Both the position numbers and the translations under genes were made by a program. The notes under the pieces are model-generated. The model was not told the origin of the DNA, searched no databases, and worked only from the letters and a program-made list of their open reading frames with translations. Shown here piece after piece: positions 38,928-46,414 of a DNA stretch of 64,000 nt (positions within the stretch are counted from its first letter, which is position 1; each line of letters begins with the position of its first letter). Source of the stretch: Saccostrea cucullata (Eukaryota); the NCBI RefSeq assembly GCF_032062105.1, contig NW_026940921.1, positions 1-64,000 on the forward strand, read 5' to 3'.

Positions 38928-40900
38928 ATGGACCGGGAGGTTAGCTCGTTCGGTCTTGGTAGGGGGGCTTTGAGACCCGAGGGGGGTTGGTACGCTCGTT
39001 CGCTGGGGGGAGACCGGAGTGGTCTATTAGGTGCCCCGTTAGAGTGCAGCCCAGGGAAAGTCCCGCCTACTAAGAGTGTGAAGTTTGTCCCAGGTGTTGC
39101 TAGTACACCTGTGCCCCAGGGGGGAGTGCCCCGGATAATGTCACTCAGTATGGGGAGGGGGACATGTCACTCACACAGGGAGCTATTTCGGAGGGTCCAG
39201 GGGAAACACCCGGATGGTCCGCTTTCTATTCCCTTATCCAGGAGCGTCAACAGATATTAGAGGGAGCGGTTGACCGGATGCAGGGGGAAATGGGTCAGAT
39301 CCACGGTGACCTTGACACTGTTAATAAGAGGGTCGACACCCTAGGTCGGGATATAGGCATGGTGAATGACAGAATGGATGTTTTTGGTCAAGATATGGGG
39401 GCCCTGAGAGGGGATATAGATGCCCTGGGGACCAGTGTGTCAAAACAGCTGGGGTCGATGGGATCTAACATAGGTGCCATGGAGACAAGTATGGGGGGCC
39501 AGTTAGGTAACATTACTCAGATGTTGGCTGGGTTAATGAAGACCAGTCAGCCCCAGTCACCCCCACCCACGCAGGATAATAGGGTCAGTCAGCCAGTAGT
39601 GACTAGTAGCCAGGGGAGTCCTTGGGTCCCTAGCGCACTACCCGGACAGCAGGTGCCTATTAGTAATCCTGTAGTGACCGCACATAGCGGGGGGTATATG
39701 CCTGTCTCTGTGGGGGGCCCTAGTGTAACCATGTATCAAGGTCAGTCCCTATCCTCACTTGGCAATGACAGTTTAGTCTCGGGATTGCCGAGCACTATTA
39801 CTTTGGGTTCATTCGCGTCAGGGGAGACCGATTGCCCAGTGCCTCCTAGCACGGGCCCACCGGTTCCGGGTCAGGTTGCATGGTGCACCCGAGCGGGTAC
39901 TTCCGCGACATTGCCCTTAGCGTCCGCGCATCCTAGTGTTGCTAACTCGAGTGGTCAGGGCGCTGGCCACTATGGTAGGTTGGTTGGGGAGTCAGTAGCA
40001 TTAGGGGGTAGTCCGTCGTTTATGCCCAGTCAGGGGGGTCTGCATAATGCAGGACAGGGACATTCCCTGATGACCACCGCGTACCAGAGCCTATTGCCTA
40101 GCTTACTTCCCGCGGGTACCCGTAGCTGCATTAGTCGAAATATTCCAGCCGAGGTCAAAGGGGTTAGATATAACGGGGACGTAGAATGGGGTCCGTTTTA
40201 CTCGAAGTTTTCTACCATTGCCGAGTACCATCAGTGGAGCGACCCCGACTCTCTGTTTGCCCTAAGTCTCACGTTAGAGGGGGCAGCCCTTAAATACTTT
40301 GACATCCTCAGGCGACGAGGCGCGCTATTAAGTTTCCGTGAGGTCGTTCTCCGGATGGAGGAGCGATTCGGTAAGACTTCTCTTAGAGCCGCCTCACAGC
40401 TGGAATTTAATTCGATCAACCAGCGGGCGGACGAAGCTATTGAGCAATGGGGAGATAGGGTGATGGACACCGCCCAGAAAGCGTTCGGTGGCGGCACCTC
40501 GCCAGAGGTCTTCCAGGAGCAAATTATTGTCCGTTTTGCTCTTGGGTGTAATGATGGGGAGGCGGGGCAACAGTTGATCAATAATCCCCCGGGAACTCTC
40601 GAGGAGGCAATTAAAAGGGTAAAGACGTATCAACTTAGCCGTAGAGCTTTAGCCCGCCGTCCGCGGGCAGTCAGATCGCTTTCTAGAGACCGGAGTAAGT
40701 CACCAAGTTCAGGCTTTTATCGCGCCAGGTCAGACTCTGAGAACCAAGACTTTTTCGTGGCACGCAGAGAGCGCTCGGAATCTAGGGACCGCTCTAATCG
40801 TGCCAGCGGAGACCGTCCTTATCGTGCCAGCAGGGACCGTCCTTATCGTGCCAGCGAGGACCGTTCCCCAGATCGTGCCAGCGGAGAGTCCGTCCGCTGA
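38928..40900 (+). CDS. gag: Gypsy gag-like ORF (probable 1-nt frameshift in the G-run near 39160; C-terminus truncated)
   Basis: Heptad coiled coil, low-complexity linker, capsid-like region RYNGDVEWGPFYSKF...Q.ADEAIEQWGDRV...TLEEAI, then RS-rich repeats. No CCHC knuckle is seen. Confidence 0.8.
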
Positions 40901-42848
40901 GGGGGGTAGTTGTGGTTCATCTACCCTTCGTCAGGCCATTGTTTCTAGTCCTTGGGAGGATACCCCTTTGTCTGTAAGTGCGTCTGCACTACCCAGTTTC
41001 CAGATTAATGTCAGTGGGGTGTCGAGTTTAGATCCCAAGATTGAGACAGTTAGTCCTCAAGTCTGTCAGGTAACAGGTGACACTGCGGGAATTTCCTTAT
41101 CTTCATACAGTCCCGCAGACCTAGCTCAGAAACAGAAGCATGACAAAGCTATAGTGTACCTAAGACAGTACTTAGAGTCTGGGGACCTACCTACCGAAAG
41201 TGACTTAATTATCTGTAGTCCGGAAGAGAAGTGCTATCTTCTGGAGCGAGACTGCTTTTATCTCGACGAGACAGCAGTTGTTTGGCGAGAACCGGATGAC
41301 TCGGATGCGCCCCGTCGGCTCCTAGTGCCGCGGAGTCTCAGATCCGAGATTATGCACTTATGTCATGACATACCGTCCTCTGGTCACCAGGGAATCCAGA
41401 GAACTAAAGAACGCCTTAAACAACAGTTCTACTGGTGGCGGATGACAAAAGACATTAAATTATATGTCAAGACCTGCGACGTATGTGCCAGGAATAAGCG
41501 TGGTTCGTTGCCAAACAGGTCAGAGCTCAAGAGCTACCAAGCTGGAAGCCCGATGGAGAGGGTACATTTAGACTTTCTCGGGCCGCTTCCCCGAACTGAT
41601 AGCGGGAACGAATACATACTCATGATGGTAGATAACTTTACCAAGTGGGTAGAGTGTATTCCGCTTCCGTCTCAGACAGCGGAAGTCACCGCCCGTTCCG
41701 CTATCAATGACTTCTTTTCTCGATTTGGCTATCCTTACGAAATCTTTACAGATCAGGGCCGCAATTTTGAGAGCGAGCTGTTCTGTAAGATTTGTGCCAT
41801 GTTAGGGATCCATAAAGCCAGGACCACACCCTACCGTCCGTCAGGGAATGGCCAGGTAGAGCGCTACAACCGCACTCTAATGGACGCGGTTCGTTGCTAC
41901 GTAGATGGCCAGCCCAAGTCATGGGATAAGTACTTAGGCCCATTGGCTGGAGCGTTGCGGTCCGCGGTAAACCACCATACTGGATACACTCCAAATCGTC
42001 TCATGCTGGGTAGAGAAGTAAATATACCAGCAACCTTGATGTTCGCCCCACCGCCTTCCACGTCTTTTCAAAATGGGGAGGAGGGTGAGGTAGACAAGTA
42101 TGTACGTGATCTAGAAGAAAATGTTCAGAGCGCGCACGACATTGCCCGCGGTAAATTAAAAGTCGCGCAAAAGGCAATGAAAAGGTCTCATGACATTAAG
42201 GTCCGTACCAGTAAGTTCAAGGTCGGAGACTTGGTCTACTGGCGCCGCAATGCGGGAAAAAAGGTAGAATCAGTATGGAGGGGTCCTGGGATAATAACCG
42301 AAGCCAAATCGGACACAATATTTGTGGTTAAATCTCGGCGCGAGGTCAAGGTCATGCACCATGACAAACTGAAAAGGTGCGAGTCCAGGCAACTCCCCAA
42401 ATGGTTAGTAAACTATAGGAATAAGTTGCCCGGACAGTCAGTAGCCCGAGATGGGGATAGTTCTCCTATACATGAAGTGGTTGCACCGCTGGGCACCGTA
42501 GACCCAGGAATTAGTCCTGAGAGCCCGGGGAGTGGGGGTCACTCAAAAGTTAGCCCCAAACCAGCGGAGTCATTAGGTCCATATATGGGTACTCGTAAAC
42601 GGGTTAGGGAAAGAGTAGAGCAATCTAAACAACCCCCATCGCCCAAAAGACCTAAAGCCACTAGGGGGACTAGAGCCAAGAAATATTGTGTTTGTCTACA
42701 GTCTAATCCCAAGGGGATGATGGTGCAGTGCGACAACTGTCGGGACTGGTTTCACCCAGGGTGTGTGGGTATAAGGGAGGATTATGCCAAATCTGTACCT
42801 CAATATATCTGCCCCGAATGTAGTCCCGTCGGAGTCGACACTGGGTAG
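40900..42848 (+). CDS. pol: pol remnant: integrase (H2C2, DDE core, GPY/F-like) with C-terminal PHD finger; PR, RT and RNase H absent
   Basis: CHDIPSSGHQG...CDVC, VHLDFLGP, FTDQGRNFES, NGQVERYNRTL, WRGPG, then YCVC...MMVQCDNCRDWFHPGC...YICPEC. Confidence 0.93.
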
Positions 42849-42999
42849 TTAGAGTAGTTAGGTTTCCGCAATGATGTGGAAGCGTGTGCAAGTTTTAGTA
42901 GGTTAACATCAGGTTTAGGTAGACTTGTACATGAATTAGTTAGTAAACCTATGTCTAACGGGTTTGATAAACTTACATGTCTTTGTAGGTTCGTAAGTG

Positions 43000-44877
43000 A
43001 TGTCTAAGGAAGTTGATGAGTTTGTCTTCGAGGGCGGAAGCTCCGCCGAGGAAGAGATGCGGGACCGCAGTGACGCGGATTCCGAAGTGGCCGCACCGGC
43101 GAGCGACGCAGAGACGCCGGAGGGAGACAACGGGAGGCCCAGAGGTCGAGGAATCATTACAGGGATTCCAGATGTGCCGCCTCCATTGCCGCCGGCTGGA
43201 CGCGGAGCGCCTATCCGACCAGAGCCCTCTTGGTCGGAGATTGTTGAGCTGAGCCTTGGGAGTCAGGAGCCTGCGAAGGCGCAGGAACCCAGCGCACCCC
43301 GACCCCTGGGAGTTGGGCGTGCGGGGTTGACCAGTTATGCCAGGTTAAGGTTATTACCCGCAGGTGCGGAGGGGGCGGGAGCCCGCCGTATCAGAGCCAG
43401 AGGTACCCGCAGGTGTGCGGTCCATGCTTGTGGAATGAAGTTTTCGGGGGCAACCCCGATGTTGGCTCACATTTGGGAGTACCACACTAGGGGGGTGGAT
43501 GACCCCCAGGTGTTCAGGGATTTTCTCCTGCAGTTAGCTCGTTTGCTCAGGGTGTCCCCTGAGGGTACCAGCGACTTTGGGATGCTGGGTCATCTCCGCC
43601 AGTGGGCGGTCTGGCGAATGGGAGAAGTCGAATGGGGGTTTTCCGGTAGTGTCAGAGATCTGATGATCCGTTTCTCTGCTCATCTGGGTATTGTGCCGCC
43701 CCTAGAGTCGGAGATCCGCAGGGTGCGGATGGGGGAGTTGCCCCATGTTGCAATGCTCATACACCCCCGGGTGATAGCTATTATGTTAAACGGTGCCAAC
43801 ATTATGGGGACTTGGAACTGTATGGAACGATCCCGCTCTAATATAGCGGAGTCTTGGGAAGACGAGTTATTGCCGGAGGCCCTTGGTCAGCAGCGAGGTG
43901 GTTCTTGTACCGGACAGCCTTCCGAGCTCCAGGGAGAGCTTGGTGACCACGACTGTGGTAGCGGAGAGCCCGCAACCACCAGTTGTTGTTGTGGTTCCGC
44001 CGGAGGAAGGCGCCAGCGGCGGAGCGCCGCGGCCTTCTTGGTCAGCGGACCCCCAGGTCCCTCTGATACAGGTTGTTGACTGTTTGTGGTTCCCCCGGAG
44101 GATCCCGGGTGGTGAGGGACAGTCGGTGGGGGAGTTGTTGCGCGCAGACCACCGCCCCGTCGATGTACGAGTGGAGCTGGTGGGTGGTTGCGTAGCGTAT
44201 GGTTTCCGAGAGGAGCCCCTCTCGGACTTAGGCAATCCGCAGTGGGTGGTAGCTCAGGGGATTTCCCCTGGGTCTGCGGACTTTGTTCTGCAGTCCGATG
44301 TAGCCCGCGTTGTGGGAGTGTGTAGAAGCAGGAACTTTGTGTTAGGAGAGATTGGACTGGATTATTCCGGTCCAGCCACTCAGAGGTGCCAGAGGTTTGT
44401 GCTGGCGGAGTTCTTCCGCCAGGCCACGTTCAGTACCGGGATGATACTGGTTTTGAGGGGGACAGCGGACGACCCTTTGGGCCGCGTTCCTACTCAAGAT
44501 TGCCTTACTCTTATGGACGGGATGTTTGTTCCCATCCTAGTACCTATCTTTATCCGTGGTTTCACTGGTGGACAGAGCAGGTGAAGCTCTGGGTGGAGTC
44601 TGGCAGACCCGTATTCTTTGGAATCGGAGGTCAGATCGCGGATATGTCCGCGACCCAGTTGTCGGGAGTCAGAGCTATTCCTACCGACCGACTGCTAGTC
44701 GAGTCGGATAGTCCTGAGTTTCCTTGTGGAGTTGAAGCGCCGATGGGCCCCGGGCACATCGGAGAAGTGTACCGCAGAGTAGCCGCAGCGAGAGGACAGG
44801 ACGTCGCCTTGCTAGCGGGCCTGGTTTTTAGGAACTTCAGGGTGTTCTTTGGGCCTCAGTTGAGGGGGTCGTTATAA
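43000..44877 (+). CDS. Gypsy ORF3: acidic N-terminus, C2H2-like motif, C-terminal TatD-fold domain (two 1-nt frameshifts at ~43880 and ~44570)
   Basis: The joined frames give VLGEIGLDYS, MILVLRG, IFIRGFTGG, VFFGIGG, IPTDRLLVESDSP and NFRVFFG in TatD order. A strong splice acceptor precedes it at 42987-42988. Confidence 0.8.
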
Positions 44878-45286
44878 ATACTTGCGCTGTAGCCGGGAAA
44901 TGATGCCCGGATGTACTTACCTGAGTTTGCCTGCATCGGGAGCAGATAGTCCTGATGGCCGGAACCAGCCGCACTATAGATGTCGCCTTTGATGTACTGA
45001 GCAGAGCCTATCCAGATGTATCAGCGATGGACCACTTGGTGGATGTTAACAACGATGGACCTCGTGGTGTTCCGAGACGACGCGGAGGATGAGTGACTGT
45101 GTGATAGGAACTGTTAAATCTGTGATTTTTATTATTATAGAGACATTAATGTTTAAAGTTTCATTATTGTGTGAATGCATGTGTATGTATGTAAGATAGG
45201 CCCTGCTAGGTGTTAATTATTACTATTGTTTGTATATTATAGTTTGTCCCATTGTAATTACTTTGCGGGCTGGGACGCCCTCTTTC

Positions 45287-45300
45287 AAAATGGGGAGGAG
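45287..45300 (+). promoter_or_regulatory. Polypurine tract
   Basis: AAAATGGGGAGGAG immediately precedes the 3' LTR. Confidence 0.9.
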
Positions 45301-45560
45301 TGTAGTGGTCCTGGAGGAGCTGGGAACGATTTCTCTAGTAACCTCCAGACCACGTGCCCGGCAGTGATGCGGGCTGTGACGTAATCGTCACTCTCTCTGA
45401 TTGCTGATTGTCGACCCGTTCAGACGTGTTTACCAATCCTCTGTAAGTCACTGTATTATTGTTGATATATTATTGGCGACCACTAATAAACGTGCGGAAT
45501 TTTACCATAGTGTTTCTGTATCCGCCATCACAGACATGTAAACATAGCAGAAATACTATA
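45301..45560 (+). repeat. 3' LTR (260 bp)
   Basis: Direct repeat of 31130-31389, followed by the CAAG TSD. Confidence 0.97.
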
Positions 45561-46414
45561 CAAGGGTCATTGGTTGAAAAGATTGGTGATGATGTGAAGT
45601 AAGAGATAATGGAACCTTTACTATGTCTTTTATTCTGGTATTGTAGATAAAATTTCACCGATTGACTAGGTCAATAAAAAATCTGCAAAAATAAAAAATA
45701 TAAAATAAAATCCGCCCGCCCGCCCCGATTTTTAAAAAAATTCGGATGAGAATCTAGCAATTTATTTATTATGGCCTAATGTTATCTACACTAAACTTTC
45801 CTTCGGCTAACATTAATGCATACATGCTTTATCGCCTTAGACTGTGTTTGAAAATAATTTTATCTCCTCTTTTTGAGTAGCTTGATCAATTTATTCTGAG
45901 TATGTCGTATAGTTAATCTTATTGCTCCTCATTCAGTAAATATGGTATTCTATATTCTAGCACTCGTCTTGAATCTTAGGTCTCTAGTTGGAGTTAATTT
46001 ATGTACTATATTAAAGCGAAATACCATTCTTCTCTCTTAATCAATCCTTCGATTTTAGCAAGATTCTTCTGCATTGATAACTGTTTTAGGTCTCCAAGAT
46101 CTTGCATCATCTTACACACAAGGTACTTTATTTACCATCTTTCAATATATCAAATTTCTGGGCATTGCTATGGTTGCTGGTCTTTCTCTTTTTATGACGA
46201 CTTCCTTGAACGTTTTTGCTTTTTTTTTTTGTTGATTTTGTTTAGAGTTAAACACAACTTTTTTGTCGTTTCTCATTTTTCCTGTTAACTTTGGACTTAT
46301 TTCATAACGAAAAGAATGTAGGGCATAATTTTGTTAAGTGCCTCCTTAAATCTAAAATTTCGATCAAACCTTTTTGTTCTGCAAAGAGAAATCAGTAGCC
46401 CAGTAAATAAGAAA

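Follow-up and report, generated by a model that had tools for sequence, protein, structure and literature searches.

The DNA analysed here, referred to as the window, comprises 64,000 nucleotides of Saccostrea cucullata contig NW_026940921.1, and at positions 43000-44877 it holds ORF2, the 3′ accessory gene of a Gypsy retrotransposon, whose product ends in a TatD-type nuclease domain. The locus raises the question of what a nuclease fold in which all five histidine ligands are replaced does for the element that carries it. A sequence-only reading had taken ORF2 for a captured TatD which lost metal-dependent catalysis and kept its fold, possibly as a nucleic-acid-binding or decoy protein. The fold, the env position, the loss throughout the family and the selection were borne out; however, the His-less state is a derived exception, and most families look intact.

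The window element and its third gene

Positions 31130-45560 are a young Ty3/Gypsy LTR retrotransposon, with all features on the + strand except where stated. It shows two direct LTRs of 260 nt with TG...TA ends (5′ LTR, 31130-31389; 3′ LTR, 45301-45560), which are 100% identical and therefore indicate a very young insertion, as well as a 4-bp target-site duplication, CAAG (31126-31129 and 45561-45564), a PBS-like stretch immediately 3′ of the 5′ LTR (31390-31408) and a polypurine tract (45287-45300). The LTR ends and the 4-bp duplications are the same in other copies; ends in TA, instead of CA, are found in the family of the window and in some relatives.

The 5′ leader contains a MULE-type DNA transposon of 7.3 kb, foreign to the Gypsy element (31444-38720, − strand), with terminal inverted repeats, a 9-bp duplication (31435-31443 and 38721-38729), an 873-aa transposase frame (33073-35694, − strand) and a PHD-containing frame (35565-36347). 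The Gypsy LTRs are still identical around this insert, so both insertions are very recent. The leader also shows a candidate splice donor, GTAAGT (38784-38789), and the gag region that follows (38886-40900) lies in two frames in the window copy and has weak matches to Retrotrans_gag and PNMA. At a deletion junction (40875-40895), about 2.7 kb encoding the zinc knuckle, protease, reverse transcriptase (RT) and RNase H are missing, and the window copy is therefore non-autonomous. The end of pol (40896-42848) encodes an integrase (H2C2 and rve) with a C-terminal PHD finger, a module already reported in retrotransposons (PMC6673714). The order protease-RT-RNase H-integrase is complete in the full-length copy L204.

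ORF2 starts 151 nt past the integrase-PHD region and is followed by the polypurine tract and the 260-nt LTR. A branch-point-like CTAAC and an acceptor-like pyrimidine tract with AG (42955-42988) end 11 nt upstream of its start. In the window, the gene is spread over three overlapping frames of the + strand (42997-44079, 43847-44584 and 44326-44877), separated by 1-nt frameshifts at two places, near 43880 and near 44569, as had been read from the letters. The joined protein of about 625 residues proved to be real, as copies L005, L006, L007 and L015 contain an unbroken ORF of 625-627 aa. The nearest named proteins to this product are oyster proteins.

Searched at the DNA level, the genome yielded 45 matches to the family, the best 30 of which were analysed. 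In full-length copies, two LTRs, 97-100% identical to each other, enclose a single gag-pol frame of about 2200 aa and, behind it, the third gene. The frameshifts of the window are matched by an indel in none of the 29 other copies, one of which shows a different small deletion nearby; they are therefore private damage or assembly errors. Programmed frameshifting was rejected, given the four unbroken copies and the restriction of both breaks to the window copy. The 5′ half of ORF2 is largely absent in at least 13 of the 30 copies, and the spread of copies without half of the gene is compatible with ORF2 working in trans or giving a benefit that is not essential. Two internal deletions of ORF2 recur in the family, show short microhomologies and have multiplied into derivatives of several copies, one carried by L003, L004, L010 and L014, and the other by L012, L018-L021 and L023-L026. 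Furthermore, codons 126-285 of ORF2 show synonymous distances of 1.2-2.3 versus 0.2-0.4 for the integrase in the same copy pairs, and this excess suggests that the segment may have been exchanged between subfamilies.

The location between pol and the 3′ LTR and the acceptor-like site before the start are shared with errantiviral env and with the env genes of further Ty3/gypsy elements (PMC13524379). In contrast with env, the ORF2 product shows no signal peptide, no clear membrane segment and no fusion-protein fold; its N-terminus is hydrophilic, the highest 19-residue hydropathy (1.78) lies inside the barrel, and the fold is that of TatD. In 9 of 15 families, the first Met has an acceptor-like site at most 20 nt before it, versus 414 of 2507 control ATGs (16.5%), and judged by these signals ORF2 is likely to be made from an env-type spliced message. 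Reads of the element amounted to 127 of 12.8 million and 110 of 11.3 million in two oligo-dT runs; depth over ORF2 was mostly below 1, too low for strand, start or splicing to be read, and no splice joint to the ORF2 acceptor appeared in these sparse reads. One contig from a run guessed to be RNA shows the 3′ third of ORF2 at higher depth and a start upstream of the acceptor. The reads also skip 880 nt internally, but this gap equals deletions found in genomic copies and was rejected as an intron.

TatD genes of Gypsy families and their donor

The Saccostrea cucullata genome shows 151 Pfam TatD matches, of which 38 places were sampled, together with two stretches of one tandem TATDN3-like host locus. 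A gag and/or pol match was found upstream on the same strand in 35 of the 38 places, and in 19 of them a pair of direct repeats flanks the match inside the 10-kb stretch examined. Most of the 16 repeat pairs inspected begin with TG and are accompanied by PBS-like sites, purine tracts and 4-bp duplications. The TatD-bearing elements form about 10 families, with two starred RT clades mirrored by two starred TatD clades. TatD is thus a standard 3′ gene of about 10 Gypsy families in this oyster genome. The host also has TATDN2-like genes of its own, at two separate intron-containing loci (L206 and L207), and a tandem cluster of intronless TATDN3-like host genes is located at G000:C14024:320000-334000 (L073, L074 and L141).

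Outside this species, where 20 of 150 matches were traced to their names, relatives include proteins of Crassostrea, Pinctada, Pecten, Mytilus and three sea urchins, and one Mytilus relative combines TatD with an integrase zinc-binding domain in a single protein. Of 61 TatD loci in metagenome contigs, 21 carry the zinc-finger/helical domain presented further on; pol is found upstream on the same strand in 13 of them, whereas none of the 40 loci without the domain has a pol match. Many of the TatD annotations in bivalve and sea-urchin genomes, and some of those in bacterial metagenome bins, are likely to be retrotransposon genes. Five element-type TatDs (P0023, P0036, P0191, P0195 and P0227) are filed as bacterial, from "Sedimenticola" metagenome bins, and are probably host DNA within those bins. 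In the nematode protein P0219, the annotation places a TATDN2-like domain after part of a phlebovirus-G2-type fusion domain, which may be a mis-joined gene model or a link between env and TatD in another retroelement.

Capture of the domain, as had been proposed, is supported, and both trees place the donor in the animal TATDN2 clade, not in a bacterium. The element TatDs and animal TATDN2 are separated from prokaryotic TatD and TATDN3 with supports of 100/98 (LG+G4, 77 rows), and the same split is obtained under a site-mixture model (97/93) with 55 rows that include the closest prokaryotic matches. The rows of the site-mixture tree include 11 GTDB matches and 5 metagenome rows, and neither tree contains a group I (TATDN1) row. 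The element TatDs are sister to TATDN2 and not nested inside it; as a single clade they receive 70/85 in one tree and 83/64 in the site-mixture tree, values which neither show nor reject their monophyly. A bacterial donor was not supported, as the best GTDB matches (80 kept of 576, 24-38% identical), sampled by the 11 in that tree, fall outside the group of element TatDs and TATDN2. A viral origin was also tried, and the 30 candidate stretches in IMG/VR contigs gave no confirmed relative.

The barrel, the order of the motifs, the PF01026 match and the long N-terminal extension are shared with TATDN2 and group II (HxH) TatD proteins, as these are described in PMC10085689 and PMC10711561, and TATDN2 is the nearest cellular clade in both trees. 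Unlike TATDN2, the oyster gene is intronless and LTR-flanked, has an added zinc-finger/helical domain and has five histidines replaced. TATDN2 is reported to degrade R-loop RNA (PMC10711561) and to be abundant in germ cells of medaka (PMC12709183). QatD of the anti-phage system qatABCD likewise shows a group II TatD recruited into a genetic conflict; however, QatD is bacterial, stands on the side of the host, is catalytically active and represents an unrelated co-option (PMC13434339).

Loss of the histidine ligands and selection on the barrel

The TatD assignment of residues 356-622 (44066-44865) is supported by sequence and by structure prediction. Pfam TatD_DNase matches the last piece of the window with an E-value of 7e-10 and an unbroken copy with 6e-15, and the unbroken protein scores 55.7 bits versus a PF01026 cut-off of 27. 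The AlphaFold2 model shows an eight-stranded barrel with pLDDT mostly >90, and Foldseek places TatD-family structures, or close relatives with the amidohydrolase fold, at ranks 1-17 (E 2.5e-10 to 3e-7). All eight TatD motifs that had been quoted are present in the window in the order claimed.

The earlier statement that the Glu and Asp ligands are kept and all five histidines replaced holds for the window and across copies. The five positions show Leu (18/18), Phe (18/18), Ser (24/28), Val (26/28) and Arg (27/29), the last at residue 519, where the other 2 of 29 copies retain His. The carboxylates are invariant in the family (Glu450, 28/28; Glu568, 29/29; Asp570, 29/29). Five of the seven members of the group II TatD ligand set (HxH, GxHP His, Glu, xHxR His, xHxF His and Asp) are thus replaced. 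A wider census comprised 114 rows, 106 of element type, after near-duplicates were dropped, and eight of the host. Among the 104 element-type rows ungapped at the ligands, all seven are kept in 85 and at least four are lost in eight; these eight represent at least three losses on separate branches, of which those seen in single sequences may be decayed copies.

Proteins P0001, P0002, P0003 and P0005 form a His-less clade with supports of 100/100 that is nested inside His-intact rows, so the loss is derived. P0003 and P0005 are proteins named from Saccostrea echinata on the same His-poor branch; the loss is therefore common to the family and to relatives in another oyster species, and not private to one copy. 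The His-less TatD domain shows dN/dS values of 0.07-0.10 in five pairs (Nei-Gojobori; dS 0.14-0.79), with bootstrap upper bounds of 0.10-0.17, and the His-intact families range between 0.09 and 0.30. Variants common to at least two of the 29 copies have a pN/pS of 0.14, versus 0.50 for private variants, a contrast typical of genes that are under selection while the element replicates and decay once a copy has inserted.

Simple decay of a passenger gene, or histidine losses private to the window copy, would agree with a copy that is broken and non-autonomous, but this explanation is refuted by replacements fixed in 18-29 copies, a dN/dS of about 0.1 and four unbroken ORFs, and is left with hardly any probability. 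Of the outcomes named beforehand as speaking against the captured-TatD reading (no TatD match, homologues outside LTR elements, or private decay with dN/dS near 1), none occurred. Catalytic residues are lost while the fold and purifying selection are kept, as is characteristic of pseudoenzymes. On these comparisons, the TatD domain is probably dead but selected, and the His-less barrel is predicted to be catalytically inactive.

Ten pocket positions are identical at 9-10 sites among intact relatives, at 3-4 sites between dead and intact proteins, and at only two sites between the two His-less lineages. The barrel strands (33-38 of 51 residues identical) and helices (53-64 of 108) are conserved at the level of close intact relatives. 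At the level of sequence, then, the active-site pocket drifts while the barrel scaffold stays conserved. In addition, the His-less barrel lacks the aromatic residue behind the ETD motif, and the domain is net acidic (K+R 20-25 versus D+E 23-31).

These data also bear on the possibility that the barrel is still an enzyme, with a remodelled site in which Glu450 and Asp570 would hold one metal and Arg519 would replace the second, or with a new substrate. Residual chemistry is conceivable because the three carboxylates are invariant within the family and because TATDN1 lost hardly any activity when single histidines at two of its metal ligands were changed to Ala; group I TatDs, moreover, work without HxH (both from PMC10085689). 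However, all five histidines were lost together, and the relative P0003 has changed the remaining ligands as well (Glu to Asp and Asp to Asn), together with other pocket residues, which a new chemistry shared by the branch would forbid. We regard a surviving enzyme as unlikely.

A constant zinc-finger/helical domain with exchangeable cargo

The reading of ORF2 as a TatD protein only had left its constant part unremarked, which is a C2H2-type zinc finger with a helical domain (residues 129-285; 43384-43854). An iterative profile search among the proteins collected here found it in 96 proteins, and its two Cys and two His, the zinc ligands, are nearly invariant across 91 sequences. In 52 of 94 proteins the finger follows a basic stretch, versus a background of 8.5%, and the dN/dS of the domain is about 0.04-0.15. 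The predicted structure of the domain is confident (pLDDT 90). For the whole protein, in which only some 400 of the 625 residues are ordered, the pTM is 0.61, a rough hint that the zinc-finger and TatD domains may pack together. The domain has no match in Pfam or in BFVD; against PDB, Foldseek gave none at E 0.001 and VIA-align a best Z of 4.0. The ESM Atlas yielded only leads scoring from below 0.9 to 0.90, and these searches taken together prove neither novelty nor absence.

The domain also occurs without TatD, in 11 of 40 further elements selected by their RT: five are cargo-free, four carry an MBLAC1-like metallo-hydrolase, one carries an SGNH hydrolase, and one is cut short. MBLAC1 is an RNA endonuclease. 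The MBLAC1-like cargo (L220:4052-5473, L222:3822-5159 and L216:7281-8099) matches PDB 4v0h with an E-value of 2e-27 and comprises one intact family (HxHxDH) and one with the histidines replaced. The His-less family has a dN/dS of 0.10-0.21 in six informative comparisons and is under purifying selection. This second cargo died in parallel with TatD, which is the strongest sign that enzyme folds can be useful to these elements without their chemistry. In L247:4042-5274, an SGNH/GDSL hydrolase with apparently intact catalytic motifs is located behind the zinc-finger/helical domain. Some related Gypsy families lack the third gene, and together with the half-gene copies they indicate that ORF2 is needed neither in cis nor by all relatives.

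Cargo-free families (L212-L215 and L218) and an exchangeable cargo would also suit a barrel without any role, in which selection only purges changes that misfold or destabilise the zinc-finger protein carrying it. A useless C-terminal domain would nevertheless normally be lost by a stop codon, and here the barrel is full length in two oyster species at 47-74% identity, with a dN/dS as low as that of intact families; selection on folding alone is accordingly improbable.

A further possibility is close to what had been suggested from the sequence, namely that the dead barrel is a nucleic-acid-binding decoy: it would bind the RNA, R-loops or cDNA ends of the element without cutting them and thereby protect them against host TATDN2 or against silencing. 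Both dead cargo types derive from RNA-processing nucleases (for TATDN2, PMC10711561), position 486 stays basic, Arg stands for His at 519 in 27 of 29 copies, and the inactive DEDD proteins Maelstrom and EXD1 are described as retaining RNA binding (PMC5408684). However, the pocket has only two of ten positions in common between the dead lineages, the stacking aromatic is lost and the domain is net acidic, so that a role in binding nucleic acids is not preferred, although the zinc finger or a different surface could still bind. We consider the decoy rather doubtful. The scaffold or partner role is preferred over nucleic-acid binding because the pocket drifts, the barrel is kept and the domain is net acidic.

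In the explanation that we favour, to which we give about an even chance, the TATDN2-related His-less barrel behind the zinc-finger/helical domain would be a selected scaffold or partner-binding module and not a nuclease; if the domain is indeed dead but selected, a non-catalytic protein-contact or scaffold role is somewhat better than an even bet. An ancestor of this Gypsy lineage would have joined a host nuclease domain of TATDN2 type to a zinc-finger accessory protein, and intact versions might trim RNA or single-stranded DNA ends of the RNA:DNA intermediates of the element, or R-loops. On the His-less branch, the chemistry would have become dispensable and the barrel been kept for its surface, which may pack on the zinc-finger domain and/or contact partners of the host enzyme. 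The ORF2 protein would likely act in trans, in the nucleus. Tentatively, and with a probability well short of even, these elements may belong to a large and old Gypsy clade of marine invertebrates whose third genes would encode a trans-acting accessory protein of an undescribed class, in which a new zinc-finger/helical targeting domain is combined with exchangeable host RNA-processing enzymes (TATDN2-like, MBLAC1-like and SGNH), repeatedly turned into dead mimics that would hijack or block partners of germline R-loop and RNA-end nucleases as a counter-defence.

The nearest described case is ORF3 of the rotifer LTR elements Juno and Vesta, which encodes a DEDDy exonuclease or a GDSL/SGNH esterase (PMC5408684). 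As in the oyster elements, a host-type enzyme occupies the env position, is specific to families and has a function that is only inferred, and an SGNH cargo is also found here, in L247. The oyster cargoes differ in having TatD and MBLAC1-like folds, always behind one conserved zinc-finger/helical domain. Furthermore, the Juno and Vesta ORF3s are reported to keep their catalytic residues and to show no clear departure from neutrality, whereas the oyster cargo shows repeated loss under purifying selection. Maelstrom and EXD1 are likewise nuclease folds without catalysis, but according to the same paper they are host silencing factors with a DEDD fold that keep RNA binding, whereas ORF2 is encoded by the element and has a TatD fold. 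In the literature searched (titles and the beginnings of abstracts, with Repbase, GyDB and subscription journals outside its scope), neither a TatD gene nor MBLAC1 was found in LTR elements, in line with the earlier remark on TatD, and the term "TatD" is absent from PMC13524379 and PMC10294476. Enzymatic third genes of LTR elements are thus already known, and what is new is the repeated, selected catalytic death and the constant, undescribed carrier domain.

Accessory genes other than env are poorly known in animal LTR retrotransposons. The present lineage provides natural matched pairs on one constant domain (intact and dead TatD, intact and dead MBLAC1-like cargo, and no cargo), which make the function of enzymatic third genes directly testable and form a clean series for how pseudoenzymes arise. 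Finally, the third gene of several elements is in frame with the integrase, either fused or past a single stop (L215, L218, L212 at the pol end, L120:5771-9007, L131 and L133), and in three of the five cargo-free families the frame continues from the integrase-PHD region, which hints that such a third gene may travel with pol.
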